DNA of 26,006 nt from Promethearchaeota archaeon (GTDB taxonomy: Archaea; Asgardarchaeota; Lokiarchaeia; Sigyniarchaeales; SOKP01), in assembly GCA_048941285.1 (NCBI GenBank), contig JBHLNS010000044.1:1-26006 (forward strand), in the 5' to 3' direction. The position numbers and the translations under genes were made by a program. The notes under the pieces are model-generated. The model had not been told where the DNA came from. It ran no database searches and saw only the letters and a list, made by a program, of their open reading frames with translations. Within the stretch, counting starts at the first letter, position 1. Every line of letters starts with the position of its first letter. Of the stretch, positions 1,613 to 13,364 are shown one piece after another.

Positions 1613-2326
1613 ATGTTAGAAAAAATCAGAACATACGCGAAAATTACGAATTTATGGGCGATTGCTAGAAGATATTTTGTAAATAACTTTTATGATGGGA
1701 TGTTAACAGTTTTAGGTATATTATTAGGCTTTTTTGTAATAATTTTAAAGGAGGGTAGCCAAGCGATTGACAGTCACCTAGTTATTTTAACCGGGATGGG
1801 GAGTTCTATTTCAATGTTTATTTCAGGTTTAACTGGATCATATCTTTCAGAGAAAGCTGAACAAAAAAAAATTAAAGAGGAATTAAAGAAAGCAATGGTA
1901 ATAGATATAATTGAAGATGACATTGGCATTGAAGTGGATTCTGACGATATCGATGAGATTGAGAAAGCAATGTTGATTAAAATTAATCAAGACGTAGAAT
2001 CAAAAACTAGAATCAGGTTGAGAAAAAGAAAAAAAAAAATAAAAACTCTTCAACAAAAAGCTGAACATTTTGCTAGTCTAATTGTTTCGTGTGTAAACGG
2101 AGGATCTCCATTTTTAGGAGGTTTAATACCATTAATTCCTTTCTTTTTTGTTCCTTTTGCAAATTTACTTATTTTCATTTACTCCTTTTTTATAATCCTT
2201 GTATGTATAATTTTACTTGGAGTATTTTTAGGGATAGTTTCAAAAGAATCCATTATAAAAAATATTCTTCAGATGACATTTGCGTTTTTTATAACTATGG
2301 TAATTTCTATCTTTCTATTAGGTTAA
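1613..2326 (+). CDS. VIT1/CCC1-like membrane protein (archaeal TIGR00267-like), paralogue 2
   Basis: ARRYFVNNFYDG, SISMFISG, GSYLSEKAE, PLIPFF; same architecture as the upstream gene. Confidence 0.8.
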   Translation: MLEKIRTYAKITNLWAIARRYFVNNFYDGMLTVLGILLGFFVIILKEGSQAIDSHLVILTGMGSSISMFISGLTGSYLSEKAEQKKIKEELKKAMVIDIIEDDIGIEVDSDDIDEIEKAMLIKINQDVESKTRIRLRKRKKKIKTLQQKAEHFASLIVSCVNGGSPFLGGLIPLIPFFFVPFANLLIFIYSFFIILVCIILLGVFLGIVSKESIIKNILQMTFAFFITMVISIFLLG

Positions 2327-2395: not shown

Positions 2396-3190
2396 ATGAA
2401 GACATTTGTAGGAATTGATATTGGTTCATTAGAGACTAAAGTTGTCTTATTGGAAAATAAAAAACTATTAGATTTTCGAGTTGGGCGATCAACATTTGAT
2501 TTTAAACGCGTTGGAAGTAATATGTTTAAGGAACTTTTAGATCAGCACAATTTGAAAAAGGATGATGTTTTCGTAATGAGTACAGGATATGGAAGAAATA
2601 CAGTGTCATTTGCAAATGATCGTATCACCGAAATCACAGCACATGCACGTGGAGTCCAATATTTCTTTCCAGATGCACATTCAGTTATAGATATTGGTGG
2701 TCAAGATAGTAAAGCAATTGTAATATCTAAAAAGACTAAAAATGTAATTGATTTCCAAATGAACGATAAGTGTGCAGCAGGAACAGGTCGTTTTATTGAA
2801 GTAATGGCTGGAGCTCTTGAGGTTCCTATCCACGAAATTGGAGGTCTAGCACTTAAATCTAAAAATCCTGCATCAATTAGTTCAACCTGCACCGTTTTTG
2901 CCGAATCTGAAGTTATTTCACTTTTTGCCAAAGGATCAAATAAGGAAGATATCGCCGCAGGAATTCATAAATCCATTGCGAAAAGGGTTGCTGGTATGGC
3001 TAAACGAATAGGTGTTGCTCCTCTTTTGGTTTTTTGTGGGGGTGTCGCTAAAAATGTAGCAGTTAAGAGTTTTTTGGAACAAGAGTTGGGGTTTGATATT
3101 GTTATTCCTGAACTTAACGGAACTAGTACTGCTCAACTGACGGGAGCAATTGGAGCTGCTCTAATTGCTCAGGATCAAAATAATAGTTGA
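2396..3190 (+). CDS. 2-hydroxyacyl-CoA dehydratase activator ATPase (HgdC/BadFG/BcrAD family)
   Basis: GIDIGS, STGYGR, ITEITAHARG, IDIGGQDSK, MNDKCAAGTGRF, SSTCTVFAESE, GGVAKN, GAIGAAL: ASKHA ATPase with the two Fe-S cysteines. Confidence 0.95.
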   Translation: MKTFVGIDIGSLETKVVLLENKKLLDFRVGRSTFDFKRVGSNMFKELLDQHNLKKDDVFVMSTGYGRNTVSFANDRITEITAHARGVQYFFPDAHSVIDIGGQDSKAIVISKKTKNVIDFQMNDKCAAGTGRFIEVMAGALEVPIHEIGGLALKSKNPASISSTCTVFAESEVISLFAKGSNKEDIAAGIHKSIAKRVAGMAKRIGVAPLLVFCGGVAKNVAVKSFLEQELGFDIVIPELNGTSTAQLTGAIGAALIAQDQNNS

Positions 3191-3296
3191 TTTCTTTTAT
3201 AACTTTTTTTGAAAATTTATGTTTTAGTTAATTATAAAAAATTTTATGAATAATTAAGTCTTTTTTGATAAATAATTCATAGTTTTAAAAATTAAA

Positions 3297-4427
3297 ATGG
3301 AGAACTTAGAGCTTTTATCTGATTACGCAACATTTTTAAGAGAAAAGAAAGAAGAAGGCAAAAAAATTGTAGCATTTATTTCTCATGATAATATTCCAGA
3401 AGAGTTATTAGATGCTGCAGGTTTTATCCCTTTAAGATTAATCTTTGCAGGTAATGATGATTTAATGGATGCTAGCCATGATTACTTACCTCCTTCAACT
3501 TGTGCATTTGCTCAATCGTGCATTGGATTATATTCTCTAAAACCAACCCAATTTAATTTCTTAGATTTAGTAGATTATATTATTGTTTCAAATCACTGTG
3601 TAAGCGATATATGTGCATCTGAAATTATTTCAAAATATTTTAACATTCCTCGTTTGAATTTTTATATATCATATACTAAAAATGCAAATAGTCTGAAATA
3701 TTTTAAATTAGAACTAATGAATTTAAAAGAGCAACTTGAAAAAATTAATGGAATTCAAATAAATACCAAAGATTTGATGAAAAGCATAAATAAATATAAC
3801 AATTTTAAAAAACTACTATCAGAATTAAATAATCTAAAGATAAAGGGCTCACAAAAGTTAAAGCATCTCCAGAAGGCAATGCTATTTGGACCCGAATATC
3901 TTGATGAATTGAAGATTTTTTTAGAAAATAAATCTAATACTCAATTCTCTAATAATGAAAAAGATATTTTACTTACGGGTTGTTCTATTTTTATAAATGA
4001 TTACTTGATTGATTTGATTGAGGATGGTGGAGGAAATATCATCTTTTTTGATACTTGGATAGGATTTAATTATTATTCGCAAATAATTGACAATAAAATC
4101 ATTAATTCTTCAAAAGATCCATTAGATCTATTAGTCAATCGATTTAAAAATAACATTTATACTGATCATTCAGTTCCAAACTTCTTAGAAGAAAAAGTCT
4201 CCCAAATAGAAGCATTTTATACTAATCATAAAAATAAAACGGGCAAAAAGCTTGCTATTATAAACCATATTATTAAATTTTGTGATCATATGTCAATTAT
4301 GGCTCCACATTTGAAAAAAGTATTGCAGGAGAGAGGAATTCCTTTGTTGAATTTAGAAAGGGACTATTCAAGAGCTAACAGAGGACAATTATCAACAAGA
4401 GTAGAAGCATTTTTAGAGATGATTTAA
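3297..4427 (+). CDS. 2-hydroxyacyl-CoA dehydratase family subunit (HgdAB/FldBC-type Fe-S protein)
   Basis: IPEELLDAAGFIP, YLPPSTCAF, NHC, ILLTG, IKFCD and the family C-terminus GQLSTRVEAFLEMI; follows the activator gene. Confidence 0.9.
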   Translation: MENLELLSDYATFLREKKEEGKKIVAFISHDNIPEELLDAAGFIPLRLIFAGNDDLMDASHDYLPPSTCAFAQSCIGLYSLKPTQFNFLDLVDYIIVSNHCVSDICASEIISKYFNIPRLNFYISYTKNANSLKYFKLELMNLKEQLEKINGIQINTKDLMKSINKYNNFKKLLSELNNLKIKGSQKLKHLQKAMLFGPEYLDELKIFLENKSNTQFSNNEKDILLTGCSIFINDYLIDLIEDGGGNIIFFDTWIGFNYYSQIIDNKIINSSKDPLDLLVNRFKNNIYTDHSVPNFLEEKVSQIEAFYTNHKNKTGKKLAIINHIIKFCDHMSIMAPHLKKVLQERGIPLLNLERDYSRANRGQLSTRVEAFLEMI

Positions 4428-4430
4428 AAA

Positions 4431-5792
4431 ATGAGTCTTATAGCTGATGATATAATTCGTTTTAGCTCCGTATTAAGGATTGCTTATAATCTATTAACAG
4501 GTAGAGATTATTTGAAAAGAAAGAAATTTCGAGAAAAAAAGAAATTAATTTCAGTAGCATTGCCTTTTTCTGATTTAGTTTATGGATTTCCCGATTTAGT
4601 TCCTGTGTTCCCAATAAGAATGCATCAGTTTGAAATGCACAAATATCTAACCTATTTGGGAAGTGCCTCAGGAATTTTTGGTTGGAAAAATGTATCAAAT
4701 TTTTTAGGGTTTATAAAAAACATTGGTATTGGAGATGTAAATGAAATTATCGATGAAATTATTGAAAATGTTATAGATACCGTAAATAAAAAGTATAATG
4801 AGATGTACGAACTAGGAATAGAAAGTGGAGTTCCAACAGATTTTTGCTATGGAATAAAATCTCTTTACGGAATGCATGTAAGTAAAGGAAAGAACGTTGA
4901 AGCTACAATAAATTATACGATTCGATGTAGTGCTTGGAATAAATATTTGGAATCATTGAAAACAATTGATAATCCTGCTAAACAGATTTGGCTTGATATT
5001 CCTCCAAGAAACATTGGAAATGCGGTAGAATTATTAACAGAGAATCTTTATGATGTCATCAGGGAATTAGAAAAAATTAGTGGAAATAATTATGATAAGA
5101 ATATTCTACATAATCATTTTCAAGTTGCTAACGATATAAGGAACTATTATAAAACTATACTCTATGAAATAAGCTCTTCTGGATTTTATCCTTGCAATCC
5201 CGCTACTTTTAGCGAAATATTAGTTATTCTCAACAATAGTTATCAGGACTATAATTCTAATGCCATTCGATACCGCGATAATATGGCATCTTTAGTAAAA
5301 GAAATGAAAGAAAGAATCAAAAATAAAATTGGAATGGATGTAAGTGGGATGCCCCGAATATTAATTACACCTATGTTTGGAGGATGGGAACCGAAAAGTC
5401 ATGAAATAATATATGAACTGGGAGGTCGGGCATTATATGCCGATTGGGATATGTTATTATTGCTAGAAGAGATACCAATAACGAAAATCTCAGATCCAAT
5501 TGAAGCTTATGCACATTATTTAATGAATGCAACAGTTAATGGAATTGGATGTGATAATGATGCTCTATCAGATTCTTATTTGAGGATAGCGAAAAAGTTA
5601 AATGCTGATGGTCTTGTGTTTATTCAGCTTTTTGGTTGTCATTCAATATCTAATTGCTTCACAATGTTAAAAGAAAAAGTTCGTCAAGAACTAGAAATTC
5701 CCTGCATAGCTTTAAATTTCAATAAAATTGGTGAAAATGTGGAGCAAGTGCGCACTAGACTAGGAGCATTTATGGAAATGTACAATGTTTAG
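4431..5792 (+). CDS. 2-hydroxyacyl-CoA dehydratase family subunit (second, divergent subunit)
   Basis: GVPTDFCYGIK, IRCSAW, LDIP, ADGLVFIQLFGCH, EQVRTRLGAFMEM; starts 3 nt after the previous stop. Confidence 0.85.
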   Translation: MSLIADDIIRFSSVLRIAYNLLTGRDYLKRKKFREKKKLISVALPFSDLVYGFPDLVPVFPIRMHQFEMHKYLTYLGSASGIFGWKNVSNFLGFIKNIGIGDVNEIIDEIIENVIDTVNKKYNEMYELGIESGVPTDFCYGIKSLYGMHVSKGKNVEATINYTIRCSAWNKYLESLKTIDNPAKQIWLDIPPRNIGNAVELLTENLYDVIRELEKISGNNYDKNILHNHFQVANDIRNYYKTILYEISSSGFYPCNPATFSEILVILNNSYQDYNSNAIRYRDNMASLVKEMKERIKNKIGMDVSGMPRILITPMFGGWEPKSHEIIYELGGRALYADWDMLLLLEEIPITKISDPIEAYAHYLMNATVNGIGCDNDALSDSYLRIAKKLNADGLVFIQLFGCHSISNCFTMLKEKVRQELEIPCIALNFNKIGENVEQVRTRLGAFMEMYNV

Positions 5793-5930
5793 AGGTTTAA
5801 ATTATATATTAATTAAAAAATCAAGTAAAAGTCTATATTTCTTACTTAAAATATTAAATTCTATAATTTTTTAATAATAATTTCTTTTTATATTACAAGA
5901 GAGTTATTAAATCAGAAAGAATGAGATTCT

Positions 5931-7394
5931 ATGTTATTCCATGAAAAGAATAAAGAAATTGATGCCGATCCTTATACGGAATACCAAGTACTATGTGGAA
6001 TCGAAGAGGAATTTCTTATTATAAATAAAAATGGGAGGTTAGCAAGGGTTGCAGATGATATAATGGTAAAATCTGCTGAAATTCTTGAAAAAGATCAAAA
6101 TTTTTTAAGTTCACTTCAAGTTAGAATACGAGGATTAGATGCGGAACCCTCACCTTCTCAAATAGAATATGTTACATTACCTTTACCCCCTAAGTCGCTG
6201 GAACAAGCTGTAAAAGAGGGAAGGAAACTATTAACTGAAGCTGCAAATCAAATTGGAGTTAAAATTCTTGCCCAAAGTCTTCATCCAATTCAAAGTGATC
6301 CACACCCTATCGCAGGTACTCATATCAACGTTTCCGTCCAAAAAAAAGGGAGTTTGATGATTCCTGAAGAAATTAAGGTAGTATATAATTATTTATGGGA
6401 TTATCTTCCAGAAATAATTGGAATTTCTGCAAATTCATATATATATAGAGGAAATTGGAATAATATTGCTAGTAATCGATGTGCCAATAGTACTGTTCTT
6501 AAATCAAATGGATTTGCATCAGTACATGTTCCAGAAAATCGTCCAGCTTTAGTTCCAATGCGGTATTATGGTCAAATGAGATATAAACTTAAAATAGGAT
6601 TTGAAAAAGATGAGTTTTCTAAAAAAGTAATCACAAACGAACGAGGAGATCGATTGGTAGATATAACACCAAGAGGACCGTTTACTAATATTAGTGATGA
6701 TAATGATGAGTTACCTTCGAGAAATCGTATAGAAGTCCGTATTGTTGATGTACAATATAATACTGAAGATTTAATGGACATGGCTTATCTTTGCTGTGTA
6801 TCGGCACTTCATGCGATTAATCTTCAAGCAACAGGGGAAATTGTTCAAGATCCATATCATTCGAATAATGTAGAAAATGCAATAGCAAATGGAACTAAAG
6901 CTATTTTTAAGAGAACAAATGGGAGTACAGAATCATTGGAAACTAGTATATCACGATGGATTAAAGAAACAAAGATATATCAAGATTATTTGGGAATTAA
7001 AATCAAGAATCTACCTGATATGAAACTTCGAATTGACCAATCTCAAAAAGAACTAAATATTGATTATAAAACAAGAAAAATTGAGAAATTGAGGCAACAA
7101 GGAAAAACTTATGTTCTTATGGAATTAGTAGAGCCAAGAATTGTCAGCGATCGAAGAGGAAATCGTTATAAGATAACTGGTGGTACCCAAGTTAGAGGTA
7201 CTTTAGAAGCAAGTTATAGTTTTTCTTATGAAGATATTAATGGAATGGTTACTAATTTCAATGGGATACAAGTTGTTAATAATCTTGTAGTGCAAAATCT
7301 TAAAATTCCTTTATATGAAAATGATCGCGTATTAAGAGGACAATCTGAATCTGAATCATTAGTTGATAGATTATTTGGAGATCTTTTCTTTTAA
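5931..7394 (+). CDS. Glutamate-cysteine ligase family 2 (GCS2/YbdK-like) carboxylate-amine ligase with C-terminal extension
   Basis: GIEEEF, QIE, LHP, GTHINVS, SANS, SNR, DITPR, RIEVRIVD match the ordered GCS2 motifs (GxEEE, GxHxH, SANSP, DxRP, ExRxxD). Confidence 0.8.
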   Translation: MLFHEKNKEIDADPYTEYQVLCGIEEEFLIINKNGRLARVADDIMVKSAEILEKDQNFLSSLQVRIRGLDAEPSPSQIEYVTLPLPPKSLEQAVKEGRKLLTEAANQIGVKILAQSLHPIQSDPHPIAGTHINVSVQKKGSLMIPEEIKVVYNYLWDYLPEIIGISANSYIYRGNWNNIASNRCANSTVLKSNGFASVHVPENRPALVPMRYYGQMRYKLKIGFEKDEFSKKVITNERGDRLVDITPRGPFTNISDDNDELPSRNRIEVRIVDVQYNTEDLMDMAYLCCVSALHAINLQATGEIVQDPYHSNNVENAIANGTKAIFKRTNGSTESLETSISRWIKETKIYQDYLGIKIKNLPDMKLRIDQSQKELNIDYKTRKIEKLRQQGKTYVLMELVEPRIVSDRRGNRYKITGGTQVRGTLEASYSFSYEDINGMVTNFNGIQVVNNLVVQNLKIPLYENDRVLRGQSESESLVDRLFGDLFF

Positions 7395-7420
7395 TTAAAA
7401 TCAACACATTTACTATAAAG

Positions 7421-7786
7421 ATGGAAAATAATAACCAAATATTTTTAAAGTGTGATAAACTCTTCGTCTATGGCACATTACAACATGGTCAAAGCCGAAA
7501 TTATATCCTTATAGGATTGGAATATGAAAAAGCGACTCTAGTAAATTATAGAAAAATAGAGCCCCCATCCTTAGGGTTTCCATTTATCATTAAAGATGAT
7601 AATTCTAGTGTCAAAGGAGAAGTATATTATGGTGTTGGAAAATCTCTCATTAATCAAATTGATATGATTGAAGGAGAAGGAAAATTATATCATAGAATTC
7701 TAATAAAAGTAAACCTAGAAGATGGAAGAGAAACAGAAGCTTATACATATTACCCCTCTGAAATTTTACTTAAAAATTACATATAA
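7421..7786 (+). CDS. Gamma-glutamylcyclotransferase (GGCT/AIG2-like)
   Basis: LFVYGTL, FP, VKGEVY, IDMIEG (catalytic Glu position), YHRI, AYTY. Confidence 0.92.
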   Translation: MENNNQIFLKCDKLFVYGTLQHGQSRNYILIGLEYEKATLVNYRKIEPPSLGFPFIIKDDNSSVKGEVYYGVGKSLINQIDMIEGEGKLYHRILIKVNLEDGRETEAYTYYPSEILLKNYI

Positions 7787-7794
7787 ATTAATGG

Positions 7795-8535
7795 ATGATG
7801 TTAATGAGTGAGGAAAATACGTTTGAAACCGAAAAAATTAGCAAGATATTACTTATAGATAATTATTCTCGAGGTCTTCCGACAGATAGAATAACAAGAA
7901 TAGAGACTATAATTAATACCTGTTTAGCAAAAGTAGAGTTAAATACTATCCATTTTACTCAATTTAAAGCAGAAATGGCAGAAGAATATATTGGTATTAT
8001 ACTTTCAGGATCTGAATTAAACGTTTCCAGTTTTTACTATAATGAGAGATTAAAAAAAAAGTTTGAGCCTCAATTTGCATTAATTACAGAAACTAATAAA
8101 ACACCTATTCTCGCTTTATGCTTTGGATTTCATTTGGCTGCTTATGCATACGGAGCACAAATAAGCAGGATGGGGCTCTATGGATTAGGAGGTAGGATTA
8201 TTTTTATTTTACTAAAAGAAACGGATGAATTAATAACTCAGAAAAACATTCCAGTTAATGTCCACCACCTTGATTTTGTATCCCCTAATGATTGTAAAAT
8301 TCAAGAAAATTTCAATGTTATCAGTATCTCCCGTACAATGGGGTATAGAATGATTCAATATATGAAACATAAAGAAAAGCCTATTTTTGCTCTTCAATTT
8401 CATCCAGAAACACATAATCCGTATTATTTTAATCCAAATTTATTCGATGATAGAATTACAGAAAAAACCAGGATGACTGGAGAAAGAATAATTGAAAACT
8501 TTATTTGGATGTGTTCTTATATTAAAAAAATCTAA
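7795..8535 (+). CDS. Class I glutamine amidotransferase-like protein (possible gamma-glutamyl hydrolase)
   Basis: LIDNY, IILSGS oxyanion loop, PILALCFGFH nucleophile elbow, QFHPE His-Glu; Cys-His-Glu triad intact. Confidence 0.9.
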   Translation: MMLMSEENTFETEKISKILLIDNYSRGLPTDRITRIETIINTCLAKVELNTIHFTQFKAEMAEEYIGIILSGSELNVSSFYYNERLKKKFEPQFALITETNKTPILALCFGFHLAAYAYGAQISRMGLYGLGGRIIFILLKETDELITQKNIPVNVHHLDFVSPNDCKIQENFNVISISRTMGYRMIQYMKHKEKPIFALQFHPETHNPYYFNPNLFDDRITEKTRMTGERIIENFIWMCSYIKKI

Positions 8536-8699
8536 ATCTCTTTTCTTATGAAAGTTTATCCATTATTTTAAAAATGCAATCGTCTGATTAGTATTAATAA
8601 TTAAAATCAAAATTTGAAAAAGAATGAATATGAATTTTAAAATATACAATTATTCAATCATTTCCTTATAATAGAAATTTAGTAAATTTTGTGATTTTT

Positions 8700-9320
8700 A
8701 TGGAAAAAATTTTCAAACTCAATTTAAAAGCTCAAGAAAACATAATAATCGCTACAAAAGAAAAGGTGGTTGCTCTAGAATTAAAGAAATTAGCTAAAAA
8801 TCTTTTAAAAAAAGTAAGAACTAGAGAGAAATTCGTTGAAAAAGAGATAAAATTAGCTCAAATTAGAAAGAAATTAGTTGAAAATAATGAAAAATTATTG
8901 GAAAACAAGATTAAATCTAAGGAATTATTAAAATTTTCAGAGGAAGTAATCAAAAACGAGAGGAATTTTATTAATTATCATGAAAAAGTTGCTGAAAATC
9001 AATTAGAGTTAGCAAAACATCATAAAGAGATTGCAAAACTAGAAGAAAAGTTAGCTAATAGTAAAATGATATTGGCTAATTCTAAACTAAATACAGCCAA
9101 TATTAGAATTAAACTAGGAAAATTACAATTAAAATATGTATTAGCTGTTCAAAAAAAAAACCTTCAAAAAGCATTACTAATAAAAGCATTTTATAAGCAA
9201 GAACAAAAAAAGTTAGAGATTCAATTTAAAGAGTCAATTCAGATAGAAAACGAAATAAAAACGCTTCAAAACGATATCGCGAATGAAACAGCTAAATTCT
9301 CTCAGGTATTGATAAAATGA
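8700..9320 (+). CDS. Lys/Glu-rich coiled-coil protein, function unknown
   Basis: Long ORF with continuous heptad pattern; ATG at 8700 preferred over GTG at 8691. Confidence 0.7.
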   Translation: MEKIFKLNLKAQENIIIATKEKVVALELKKLAKNLLKKVRTREKFVEKEIKLAQIRKKLVENNEKLLENKIKSKELLKFSEEVIKNERNFINYHEKVAENQLELAKHHKEIAKLEEKLANSKMILANSKLNTANIRIKLGKLQLKYVLAVQKKNLQKALLIKAFYKQEQKKLEIQFKESIQIENEIKTLQNDIANETAKFSQVLIK

Positions 9321-12449: not shown

Positions 12450-12785
12450 ATGGATGTATTAACAGAGGTTACATCAGAATTTTTAAAATTATTGAGTGAT
12501 CCATATAAATTAGAAATTATTAAGTTTCTAAAAATAGGGGAAAAATCATCAAAAGAAATCGAAGAAGCCTTAAACATAAGTCAATCTTACACATCGCAAC
12601 TATTAAAACAACTGCAATTAGCAAATATTATTTATCATAAAAGAAAAGGAAGCATTAAAAAATATTTTATAAAAAGCTCTAACATTTTCAGAGTTATTTC
12701 TGCTATTAATTCAATTGTTATAGAGTTATATAAAGATAAGTTTCAAAGATTGATTGATTCAGATAATATCGAAAAATTAAAATAA
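12450..12785 (+). CDS. ArsR/SmtB-type winged-helix transcriptional regulator
   Basis: FLKLLSDPYKLEIIKFL, ISQSYTSQLLKQL, RKG...YFI wing. Confidence 0.88.
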   Translation: MDVLTEVTSEFLKLLSDPYKLEIIKFLKIGEKSSKEIEEALNISQSYTSQLLKQLQLANIIYHKRKGSIKKYFIKSSNIFRVISAINSIVIELYKDKFQRLIDSDNIEKLK

Positions 12786-12821
12786 TAAAAGGAAATCTAA
12801 CTTAATTTTTTAAAAACAACA

Positions 12822-13364
12822 ATGTCAATCACTATTGAGCAAAAAAAGAAAAAAATTTTGGTATTGGGATTAGAAAAAAGTGGTAAATCTTCTATTGTCT
12901 CAAGTTTTATAGGTAAATTTAATTTATCTGACTTTATCTCTTCTAATATTACTAAAAGTCCTAATATAATCAAATTAGAAAAGGGGAATATACTGTTTAG
13001 TATTTGGGATTTTAATGGTAAAGAAATTAATCGTAATGCATTTTTAAAAAACTTTAATGACCTTATTATTGATACGGAAGAAGTATTCTATGTTATTGAT
13101 ATCCAAGATTTTAAGAAATATGATTTAACATTAAAATTCTTACAGGAAATTATTGAAAACCTAAAAAAAATTGATCATAAAGTAGAATTTACTTTTTTTC
13201 TTCATAAATATGATCATGATCTTTTTGAACAAATTCCGGAGATTAATATAGAAAAAATTGAAAACCTTATAGAAACAATAAGAAAGATTATCCCTCCAGA
13301 AGATTTTCATGAAATTTACAAAACCACGATTTACACTGTTTTGGACAAAATTCATATTTATTAA
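12822..13364 (+). CDS. Small GTPase, Arf/Rag-like (Asgard-type)
   Basis: G1 GLEKSGKSS, G3 WDFNG, YVID strand, G4 HKYD, G5-like KTTIY. Confidence 0.85.
   Translation: MSITIEQKKKKILVLGLEKSGKSSIVSSFIGKFNLSDFISSNITKSPNIIKLEKGNILFSIWDFNGKEINRNAFLKNFNDLIIDTEEVFYVIDIQDFKKYDLTLKFLQEIIENLKKIDHKVEFTFFLHKYDHDLFEQIPEINIEKIENLIETIRKIIPPEDFHEIYKTTIYTVLDKIHIY

Follow-up and report, generated by a model that had tools for sequence, protein, structure and literature searches.

What role could a carboxylate-amine ligase, a gamma-glutamylamine cyclotransferase and a glutamine amidotransferase-fold (GATase-fold) enzyme play when their genes stand side by side in an archaeon? Among known organisms, Asgard archaea are the nearest relatives of eukaryotes, and we know of almost no lineage-specific Asgard enzyme that has been characterised. 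The three genes lie in a stretch of 26,006 nucleotides from a Promethearchaeota archaeon (GCA_048941285.1, contig JBHLNS010000044.1), which is called the window here. An Asgard origin of the window is consistent with its TFIIB and Arf/Rag-like GTPase genes and with the sources of the homologues, which are Promethearchaeota, Hodarchaeota, Heimdallarchaeota and others. The proposal in an earlier note was that the genes form a self-contained module, consisting either of one writer and two erasers or of one eraser and an ammonia donor. As candidate functions it named a thiol cycle of the gamma-glutamylcysteine type, protection and deprotection of an amine, and reversible glutamylation of proteins. 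Comparative genomics, as described below, gives good support to a gamma-glutamyl module of functionally linked genes, and this part of the proposal stood; both alternatives for the third enzyme and the candidate functions are treated below as competing readings.

The three-gene unit

The triad consists of three co-oriented open reading frames separated by gaps of 26 and 8 nt (table 1). Both this arrangement and the retention of catalytic motifs in each gene had been noticed earlier, and both are borne out, the former by the coordinates and the latter by the conservation of the catalytic residues across the homologues of all three proteins. Across the genome loci the corresponding gaps have medians of 26 nt (n=40) and 11 nt (n=35). 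The spacer in front of the ligase gene is probably the unit's own promoter region; a scan for bacterial-type promoters and terminators, which is unsuited to archaea, performed no better on the window than on shuffled sequence. The Rfam search of the window gave no match, and PADLOC found no defence-family match for the three window proteins or the partner proteins.

Table 1. Features of the three-gene unit and its upstream spacer.
Feature	Position	Strand	Basis
AT-rich spacer, 138 nt, 5' of the ligase gene, between HGD-like genes and the triad	5793..5930	+	direct sequence reading
Carboxylate-amine ligase, GS/GCS2 (YbdK-like) fold, 487 aa	5931..7394	+	Pfam GCS2, Foldseek, motifs
AIG2-like gamma-glutamylamine cyclotransferase (GGACT fold), 121 aa	7421..7786	+	PF06094, PDB sequence matches, motifs
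Stand-alone class-I GATase-fold thiol enzyme, Cys-His-Glu triad, 246 aa	7795..8535	+	PF00117, triad

The HGD-like genes upstream were considered as further members of the unit and rejected, being absent 5' of the triad in two loci (L004 and L006) with ligases that share 84-85% identity with that of the window. Among ligases 84-86% identical to the window's, the triad is found both with and without these genes; the triad moves as a unit.

A divergent carboxylate-amine ligase

The ligase is a divergent member of the GCS2/YbdK-fold carboxylate-amine ligases. The best Foldseek matches of its AF2 model (pLDDT 75.4) are the YbdK structures 1tt4 (E 1.2e-11) and 1r8g (E 2.8e-11), followed by glutamine synthetases and the Pup ligase PafA (4bjr, E 1.2e-7), and the profile of its family reaches ordinary GCS2 proteins at E ~1e-9. 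With the YbdK/GCS2 family (PF04107) it shares the fold, the GhExE motif, which is the signature given for the superfamily by Iyer et al. 2008, the metal-binding His and the Arg motifs. These are invariant in an alignment of 17 rows and in a divergent alignment of 12 rows, where the invariant columns read G-x-E-x-E, E-P-x-P-x-Q-x-E, H-P, G-x-H and R-x-E-x-R-x-x-D; the ligases in the divergent alignment that have no GATase neighbour retain identical active-site residues. Unlike members of that family, the archaeal ligase carries an extra domain, its Pfam GCS2 match is marginal (23.4 bits, with a cut-off of 21) and confined to residues 23-121 in the N-terminal third, and it falls far below the cut-offs of the NCBIfam YbdK and GshA models (TIGR02050, NF010039-45; best scores 42.5 against 176.4 and 42.4 against 332). 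It should therefore not be named a glutamate-cysteine ligase.

The GS/GCS2 fold occupies approximately residues 1-350, and it is followed by a family-specific small beta-barrel (approximately residues 375-475) and a conserved aromatic C-terminal tail. The model of the C-terminal domain has a pLDDT of 84.5, but Foldseek found nothing for it at E <= 0.001, and the best VIA-align match (Z 5.0, among mixed small beta-barrels) is not significant and shows neither a known nor a new fold. The weak matches of the barrel come mostly from SH3b, Sm and WYL-like domains that bind peptides or ligands. In the AF2 model of the ligase, residues 169-262 have a pLDDT < 50 in spite of their high conservation, and the acceptor pocket is for that reason not readable from the model. 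Prediction of a complex between the ligase and the class-I GATase-fold protein gave a score of 0.01, which is no verdict either way.

The ligase belongs to a small archaeal family of patchy distribution. This family occurs in 76 of 400 genomes of the phylum, in 13 of 90 high-quality genomes, and in 32 of the 53 other genomes of its own genus, 21 being without it. Only 68 representative clusters are reached by the family profile at E <= 0.001 among 1.84 billion proteins, and the ESM Atlas search returned only clusters of the family itself. The ligase is strongly conserved but accessory, and its patchy distribution argues against a core redox buffer.

The partner enzymes

YGxL together with a catalytic Glu is the functional signature of GGACT/AIG2-like cyclotransferases, whose chemistry depends on a free alpha-amino group and has been described for free isopeptides. 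In the protein encoded by the second gene (PF06094, 63.7 bits against a cut-off of 22.8) this motif (Y17, G18) is kept in 56 of 58 aligned rows and Glu84 in all 58. Its PDB sequence matches are the AIG2-like structures 2jqv, 2g0q and 3jub, and PHROGs returned only a generic gamma-glutamyl cyclotransferase family.

The third protein scores 58.4 bits against PF00117 (cut-off 22.8), and all 26 aligned rows have Cys109, His203 and Glu205. Its score against Peptidase_C26 (PF07722) is 24.0 against 20.5 bits, but no single stretch passes, and the PF07722 scores of its homologues (19.5-35.5 bits) are always under their PF00117 scores. The homologues start at the position of residue 4, and the true start may lie a few codons downstream of 7795. 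Judged by its sequence, the protein could be either a gamma-glutamyl amide hydrolase or a glutaminase. Its closest sequence relatives are GMP synthase subunit A of M. jannaschii (71 bits), then TrpG and CarA, whereas gamma-glutamyl peptidases are much weaker relatives (GGP1, 9k7i, E 3e-5; GGH, E 5e-4). That the closest relatives are true glutaminase subunits is an observation that speaks against hydrolysis of a gamma-glutamyl amide.

A grouping with GMP synthase A or TrpG had been named earlier as a finding that would count against the module. These are indeed the nearest relatives by sequence, but the protein is not an equivalog of them: it stays below every NCBIfam equivalog cut-off (GMP synthase subunit A 55.5 against 198, TrpG 29.3 against 121, CarA 36.5 against 221), the genome has its own complete fused GuaA (733 bits) and CarA (422 bits) as well as PyrG and PurQ, and the only conserved partner of the protein is the adjacent ligase. 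Assignment as GMP synthase subunit A or TrpG was accordingly rejected, and the idea of a module is not refuted.

In the Heimdall/Hod-type loci the third gene is probably a class-II GATase. In all 8 aligned rows of this partner the Cys2, DGWG, HAR and HNG columns do not vary, and Pfam GATase_6 scores above its cut-off in two of seven proteins, below it in three and is absent in two. The best NCBIfam match, a weak one (32 and 19 bits, cut-off 218), is EgtC, which is a gamma-glutamyl amidohydrolase. Alignment by hhalign with the GlmS N-domain of the same genome places the motifs in register at a non-significant E of 0.15; the alignment with the PurF N-domain of the same genome is not significant, and the search of the partner profile against PDB sequences gave no relevant match.

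Conservation of the neighbourhood

Fifty-five species-level loci were surveyed, of which four are cut by contig ends, leaving 51 evaluable. A gene for a glutamyl-amide hydrolase adjoins the ligase gene in all 51, and in 48 of them it is the GGACT gene, a GATase gene or both. Synteny in related genomes, which had been put forward as a test of the proposal, is kept: the complete triad with the class-I GATase is present in 28 of 55 loci, and a further seven have the probable class-II GATase as the third gene. A class-I GATase alone is found in ten loci, all from clade-A species without GGACT in the operon, GGACT alone in three, and an FGase-type (formylglutamate amidohydrolase) partner in three. 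The adjacency is far beyond chance, and it persists down to approximately 55% ligase identity and across the replacement of one GATase class by the other.

The ligase tree (64 rows) recovers the GGACT/GAT clade with an SH-aLRT of 99%, and within it the GAT-I ligases (95%) and the GGACT + GAT-II ligases (99%) form separate clades. In the deeper clades an FGase-like amidohydrolase takes the place of these partners, sometimes with an Amidohydro_2 protein or with an ATP-grasp ligase that gives weak TTL and RimK-like matches. As one hydrolase is replaced by another across the clades, the constant theme is a ligase with a hydrolase, and the place beside the ligase has been filled by four or five hydrolase folds that are unrelated to one another. 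The FGase, Amidohydro_2 and GGACT partners cannot donate ammonia.

In five genomes of a sister clade the FGase-like hydrolase and a genuine archaeal histone fold are joined in one protein, and the gene of this fusion adjoins the ligase gene divergently in all five. The ligase of this clade is approximately 44% identical to that of the window, and neither GGACT nor GATase is present. The fusion points to a macromolecular target and in this respect speaks against a small-molecule acceptor. A literature search on FGase with a histone fold found nothing, and one on FGase with ATP-grasp returned general reviews only.

Functional interpretation

We tentatively favour, as a nearly even call that falls slightly on the doubtful side, the reading that the triad is a self-contained unit which forms a gamma-glutamyl amide on an acceptor and then cleaves it. 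The ligase would act as the writer, phosphorylating a carboxylate with ATP, and attack by an amine (R-NH2) would give the amide. If the ligase behaves like all characterised GCS2, GS and PafA enzymes, this carboxylate would be the gamma-carboxylate of L-glutamate and the product gamma-Glu-NH-R; since the ligase is very far from the characterised GCS2 enzymes, glutamate as the carboxylate substrate is an analogy only. The GGACT-fold protein would be the first eraser, cyclising the glutamyl group intramolecularly to release 5-oxoproline and R-NH2, and the GATase-fold protein, as a hydrolase rather than an ammonia donor, would be the second, passing through a gamma-glutamyl-cysteine thioester to glutamate and R-NH2. 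The acceptor is more probably a small molecule, namely an amino acid, an amine or a short peptide, and the module would then resemble the cytosolic turnover of glutathione or gamma-Glu-Cys, or a pathway of the PuuA/PuuD type in which the gamma-glutamyl group serves as a handle. In that case it would define a new gamma-glutamyl metabolite or thiol in these organisms, whereas with a protein acceptor it would be a novel reversible modification in the lineage from which eukaryotes arose. Expressed together, a writer and two erasers would be futile without an intervening step, and no enzyme for such a step is conserved across the clades; the module would presumably have some way of avoiding the futile cycle.

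The strongest competitor, which we nevertheless regard as unlikely, is a glutamine-dependent amidoligase. Here the GATase, class I in the Loki-type clade and class II in the Heimdall/Hod-type clade, would be a glutaminase subunit supplying ammonia to the ligase for amidation of an ATP-activated carboxylate, and GGACT would be a salvage or proofreading accessory. The kinship of the class-I protein with the glutaminase subunits of amidotransferases and its invariant catalytic triad fit this role, the exchange of class I and class II is what would be expected of interchangeable ammonia donors, and Iyer et al. 2008 place GatB/GatE, which use separate glutaminase subunits, in the same superfamily. 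However, neither partner is obligatory beside the ligase, as ten clade-A species lack an operon GGACT and at least three an operon GATase, and ligases of the FGase-type clades have the same active-site residues without any GATase neighbour. Moreover, if the carboxylate were that of glutamate, the overall reaction would do no more than remake glutamine, and GGACT would be left without a role.

Less probable still is reversible gamma-glutamylation of proteins, possibly those of chromatin, in which the ligase would either attach free glutamate at a lysine or N-terminus or link a carboxylate of the protein with an amine, while the beta-barrel docks the target and the GGACT and GATase-fold enzymes strip the mark. 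The fold shared with PafA, the high conservation of the ligase (55% identity between Loki-type and Heimdall-type sequences), the additional barrel with its mostly peptide- or ligand-binding matches, the histone fusion and the TTL- and RimK-like ATP-grasp partner are all in keeping with a protein target. Against this, the operon, with its short gaps, has no room for a small tag ORF of the Pup kind, which would end in Glu or Gln, and inspection by eye of ORFs of at least 45 aa around 24 loci revealed no recurrent one; GGACT requires a free alpha-amino group; the histone fusion belongs to a different clade that lacks GGACT and GATase; the C-terminal domain has no significant fold match; and a core protein would hardly be marked by the product of an accessory gene that many genomes of its own genus lack. 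Extended to the whole family, this reading would make the ligase the writer of a reversible gamma-glutamyl protein mark, with chromatin proteins as leading candidates and GGACT, a class-I or class-II GATase-fold hydrolase or the FGase-histone fusion as erasers, which is a similarly improbable proposition; if true, it would describe an Asgard-centred modification system whose ligase differs in fold from the eukaryotic TTLL glutamylases.

Finally, that the genes are neighbours without a shared pathway, for instance a generic gamma-Glu-Cys synthetase, an orphan glutaminase and a housekeeping GGACT, is hardly credible: each family does occur alone in many genomes and all five GAT-only genomes tested carry a GGACT-family gene elsewhere, but the adjacency survives deep ligase divergence and the GATase class swap, and the operon copy is the sole GGACT-family gene in this genome.

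Relation to known systems

Synthesis and hydrolysis of gamma-glutamyl amides are combined in several characterised systems, to which the favoured make-and-break module can be compared. In the turnover of glutathione and gamma-Glu-Cys the bond is broken by ChaC/GGCT, by yeast Dug3, which is a class-II GAT, and by plant GGP1, which is a class-I GAT, and ergothioneine synthesis uses EgtA/EgtC. These systems apply the same three hydrolase folds to gamma-glutamyl amides made by a GCS-type ligase, and GGP1 and EgtC are weak matches of the proteins described here, but these systems are not known to have synthesis and breakdown encoded by a single operon. GshB, EgtB and EgtD are absent from the Loki/Heimdall clade.

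Gamma-glutamylation also initiates catabolism, as in the PuuA/PuuD pathway for putrescine and with the GS-like ligases for isopropylamine, aniline and 1-naphthylamine; the structures 8x6z, 8wwu and 9qur are among the fold matches. On the one hand, an ATP-dependent gamma-glutamyl-amine ligase is encoded there together with a gamma-glutamyl hydrolase of class-I GATase fold, as is proposed for our triad. On the other hand, the ligases are GS type III-like dodecamers rather than GCS2-like, and the clusters include oxidoreductases acting between ligation and hydrolysis, none of which is conserved here. PafA/Dop pupylation shares the ligase superfamily and the logic of writing and erasing a gamma-glutamyl isopeptide, but the present loci have no apparent Pup-like ORF and no proteasome linkage, and their erasers have unrelated folds.

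The earlier note knew of no characterised example of the exact triad, and our literature search likewise found none, although the 2009 survey by Iyer et al. may already cover part of these neighbourhoods. The earlier note's statement that previous predictions involved mostly class-II amidotransferases was not confirmed, as the sections of Iyer, Burroughs and Aravind 2008 available to us name no GAT class. Those sections do describe a 'new carboxylate-amine ligase' family, with Clostridium perfringens CJD_1902 as an example, that adjoins a GAT-like thiol peptidase among the proteobacteria or an Aig2 gamma-glutamyl cyclotransferase among the firmicutes, for which glutathione-like peptide-metabolite chemistry is predicted on computational grounds only. 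As far as that description goes, the two families are alike in pairing a GCS2-like ligase with the same two kinds of partner and apparently also in the absence of a Pup-like small ORF. Compared by description only, the family of Iyer et al. is bacterial, GCS2-sized and found with either partner, whereas the archaeal ligases are approximately 130 residues longer, carry the C-terminal beta-barrel, often have both partners, exchange class I for class II and extend to FGase-type partners.

Ligase and its distribution

The three co-oriented genes described in the earlier note, with gaps of 26 and 8 nt, were found as stated (see the table), and an AT-rich spacer of 138 nt lies 5′ of the ligase ORF. 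In Pfam the ligase ORF is a marginal GCS2 match (23.4 bits, cut-off 21) over residues 23-121 only, the second ORF is GGACT/AIG2-like (63.7 bits), and the third is a class I GATase (58.4 bits) that also matches Peptidase_C26 (24 bits). Among NCBIfam models the ligase is far under the YbdK and GshA cut-offs (best 42.5 against 176.4). The structures closest to its AlphaFold2 model (17-row alignment, mean pLDDT 75.4) are YbdK (1tt4, E 1.2e-11; 1r8g, E 2.8e-11), followed by glutamine synthetases, PafA and gamma-glutamyl-amine synthetases (Foldseek). The catalytic motifs, claimed to be intact, are indeed invariant in the close alignment (17 rows) and in the divergent one (12 rows, down to 28% identity): GhExE, given by Iyer et al. 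(2008) as the signature of carboxylate-amine ligases, and the EPxPxQxE, HP...GxH and RxExRxxD stretches. Residues 169-262 are highly conserved, yet they are modelled with pLDDT <50.

From residue ~352 onward the ligase has an additional domain, absent from proteins of YbdK size. A separate model of this domain (44 rows, pLDDT 84.5) shows a small β-barrel followed by a helix; it gave no Foldseek match at E ≤ 0.001, and its top VIA-align Z was 5.0, against a mixture of SH3b, Sm and WYL-like barrels. The ~15 last residues form a conserved aromatic tail; the C-terminal stretch encoded at window 7340-7391, acidic and then aromatic, is kept from Loki-type to Heimdall-type sequences and might serve in docking or autoregulation.

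A word-indexed search matched 166 proteins at E ≤ 0.001; among the 120 matches listed, length is ~480-490 aa, identity is 52-100%, and every source-named protein bears an Asgard-lineage label. When the ligase profile was searched exhaustively against 1.84 billion representatives, 68 clusters were obtained at E ≤ 0.001, of which 23 reached E ≤ 1e-30. Full-length ligase clusters number about a dozen, ordinary GCS2 proteins come next at E ~1e-9, and the divergent clusters have among their named members Korarchaeota (Methanodesulfokora) and a MAG with the label Methanopyri. The gene is present in 76 of 400 sampled genomes of the phylum (E ≤ 1e-30), in 13 of the 90 high-quality genomes of that sample and in 32/53 other genomes of the window's genus, several same-genus genomes of 97-99% completeness being without it. 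Given these counts and this patchy distribution, the family is strongly conserved where present but accessory. In one species a frameshift or break divides the ligase into two ORFs (locus L056:2745-4315; genome G269:C35:14747-16341), with GGACT and GATase still downstream.

Genes adjoining the ligase

Neighbours were classified at 55 loci, one genome per species (GTDB set), by tblastn, by Pfam on 54 downstream ORFs and by HMMs built from the loci themselves. The ligase lies beside GGACT and a class I GATase in 28 loci, GGACT and a ~300-aa class II-like GATase in seven, a class I GATase only in 10, GGACT only in three (in two of which a 4-alpha-glucanotransferase gene intervenes) and FGase-like hydrolase types in three, one of which also has a divergent GGACT; in the remaining four a contig end is ≤1.3 kb away. 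Therefore, a gene for a glutamyl-amide hydrolase adjoins the ligase in all 51 evaluable loci. The earlier note had proposed conservation of the neighbourhood as a check, and the triad proved syntenic in 28/55 loci, an outcome that does not refute a module. The gap between ligase and GGACT has a median of 26 nt (n=40), that between GGACT and GATase one of 11 nt (n=35). In each of five genomes checked whose operon is without GGACT, a GGACT-family gene occurs elsewhere (35-47 bits); among five without GATase in the operon, a class II-like partial homologue occurs elsewhere in one and very weak matches in two.

From 97 ligases (the window's and called ORFs of at least 440 aa), 64 were kept after dropping rows ≥88% identical to a kept row, and a quick IQ-TREE tree, rooted at its midpoint, was built with SH-aLRT as the sole support measure. 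The ligases linked to GGACT or GATase fall into a single group (44 rows, 99%), which divides into ligases with class II GATase and GGACT (8 rows, 99%) and those with class I (36 rows, 95%); operons without GGACT occur several times inside the latter. Outside lie the FGase-histone, then the Amidohydro_2 + FGase, then the ATP-grasp + FGase groups, a deep branching order that is tentative in view of several flagged long branches.

Scanning metagenomes with the divergent alignment yielded 56 loci, 11 of which have no called ligase ORF ≥60 aa because they are fragments. Neither GGACT nor GATase was found near these divergent ligases. Instead, 15 loci have the order ATP-grasp, FGase-like, ligase or, in Korarchaeota, FGase-like, ligase, ATP-grasp; three (L083, L084, L092) have ligase, Amidohydro_2, FGase-like; and in seven, some truncated, the ligase lies divergently beside an FGase-like gene. 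The three-gene ATP-grasp units occur in Korarchaeota, Njordarchaeota and other metagenome lineages (L055, L064, L066, L067, L071, L074, L076 and others), and their ATP-grasp proteins weakly match YheC/D, TTL and GSH-synthetase.

In L053 (Sifarchaeum), L089, L096/L097 and L105 the FGase-like protein ends in an archaeal histone fold, and the gene is divergent from a sister-clade ligase ~100-330 nt away. FGase-like partners occur in 16 of the 400 phylum genomes (E ≤ 1e-10), 15 of which also have the ligase; in all five genomes whose match runs through the histone region, the fusion and the ligase lie on opposite strands, ~220 nt apart. The host genome of the window has one FGase-like gene, unlinked and without the histone fold. 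In three genomes of two families the FGase-like gene has one or two TAG codons within its reading frame (G285:C113:2210-2803, G289:C223:3218-3778, G007:C11:61412-61966), which may reflect pseudogenes, sequencing errors or read-through/recoded TAG.

GATase partners

In sequence, the class I GATase is nearest, among solved proteins, to archaeal GMP synthase subunit A (71 bits, E 8.5e-19), with TrpG and CarA next; its similarity to plant gamma-glutamyl peptidase 1 (E 3e-5) and to human gamma-glutamyl hydrolase (E 5e-4) is much lower. As to whether it is a GMP synthase A/TrpG subunit, a possibility raised in the earlier note, ancestry agrees; however, it scores far below every NCBIfam equivalog cut-off (best GMP synthase subunit A, 55.5 against 198), and elsewhere the host genome has GuaA, complete and fused (733 bits), as well as CarA, PyrG and PurQ. 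Together with its family-specific invariant residues and N-terminal extension, this indicates glutaminase-type descent, yet identity with none of the known subunits. Three loci without GGACT have class I GATases with a low-complexity acidic/Lys-rich N-terminal extension of 60-110 residues (L025:7961-9019, L031:8464-9354, L045:8544-9467).

The ~300-aa partner is, from its sequence, a probable class II GATase: the N-terminal Cys and the DGWG, HAR and HNG columns are invariant (8/8 rows), Pfam GATase_6 is above cut-off in 2/7 and weaker in 3/7, EgtC matches weakly, and in hhalign the motifs are in register with GlmS in an alignment that is not significant.

Possible function

The constant of the family is a ligase of the glutamate-activating superfamily beside an enzyme cutting an amide on glutamate, and the hydrolase fold has been swapped repeatedly (FGase-like, Amidohydro_2, GGACT, class I GAT, probable class II GAT). 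Constant pairing with exchanged folds favours a write/erase or make/recycle relationship. Our tentative first choice, given nearly even chances, is that the ligase would make a small gamma-glutamyl conjugate, which the neighbouring hydrolases would break or recycle. A small-molecule acceptor is favoured by the likeness to glutathione or gamma-Glu-Cys turnover and to gamma-glutamyl handle pathways. Most of the other partner enzymes are unable to supply ammonia, and the active site is unchanged in ligases that lack a neighbouring GATase; both points favour a hydrolytic GATase. For the Loki and Heimdall clades a glutamine-dependent amidoligase, which the glutaminase-type ancestry of the GATase fits, is an unlikely reading. 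Protein glutamylation, with which the extra β-barrel, the strong conservation of the ligase and the histone-fused hydrolase are consistent, is less probable still than the amidoligase. Some explanation not considered here takes the rest, and that the triad genes are unrelated neighbours is very improbable.

A bacterial family of GCS2-sized ligases, encoded beside a GAT-like thiol peptidase or an Aig2 cyclotransferase, was described by Iyer, Burroughs and Aravind (2008), who predicted glutathione-like peptide chemistry for it. Literature searches found no paper on the archaeal ligase family, the triad or the FGase-histone fusion; the triad may be regarded as a variation on a computationally predicted arrangement, of which the literature searched gave no characterised member.

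Other genes of the window

The earlier note called the host Asgard-like, and the rest of the window, with TFIIB, an Arf/Rag-like GTPase, an H+-pyrophosphatase and two VIT1 genes, does resemble a Lokiarchaeia-type genome.

Features of the window and FGase-histone fusions at other ligase loci (L-numbers)
Feature	Position	Strand	Remark
Two tandem VIT1-family (vacuolar iron transporter-like) paralogues	835-1497 and 1613-2326		upstream of activase
BcrAD/BadFG-type activase + two HGD-D/double-cubane-cluster-like subunits	2396-5792		directly upstream of triad
Ligase ORF (487 aa)	5931-7394	+	first of three co-oriented ORFs
GGACT ORF (121 aa)	7421-7786	+	second
Class I GATase ORF (246 aa)	7795-8535	+	third
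Lys- and Glu-rich ORF (209 aa), probably coiled-coil	8691-9320		downstream of triad
ArsR-type HTH gene, then Arf/RagA-like small GTPase gene	12450-13364		typical of Asgard genomes
FGase-histone fusion	L053:449-1303	-	PF05013 + PF00808
FGase-histone fusion	L089:2733-3575	-	PF05013 + PF00808
FGase-histone fusion	L097:2471-3313	-	PF05013 + PF00808
FGase-histone fusion	L105:2958-3800	-	PF05013 + PF00808

The activase and HGD-D arrangement upstream of the ligase is common to ~22/55 loci and absent in L004 and L006, and an extra HGD-D paralogue lies 3′ of the GATase in L011, L012 and L028; a tie to glutamate fermentation is possible. The position of the VIT1 pair is kept in close relatives. The 209-aa ORF, for which a Pfam search gave no match, recurs 3′ of the triad in L002, L003, L005, L007, L013, L017, L024 and L047 with 68-75% identity.
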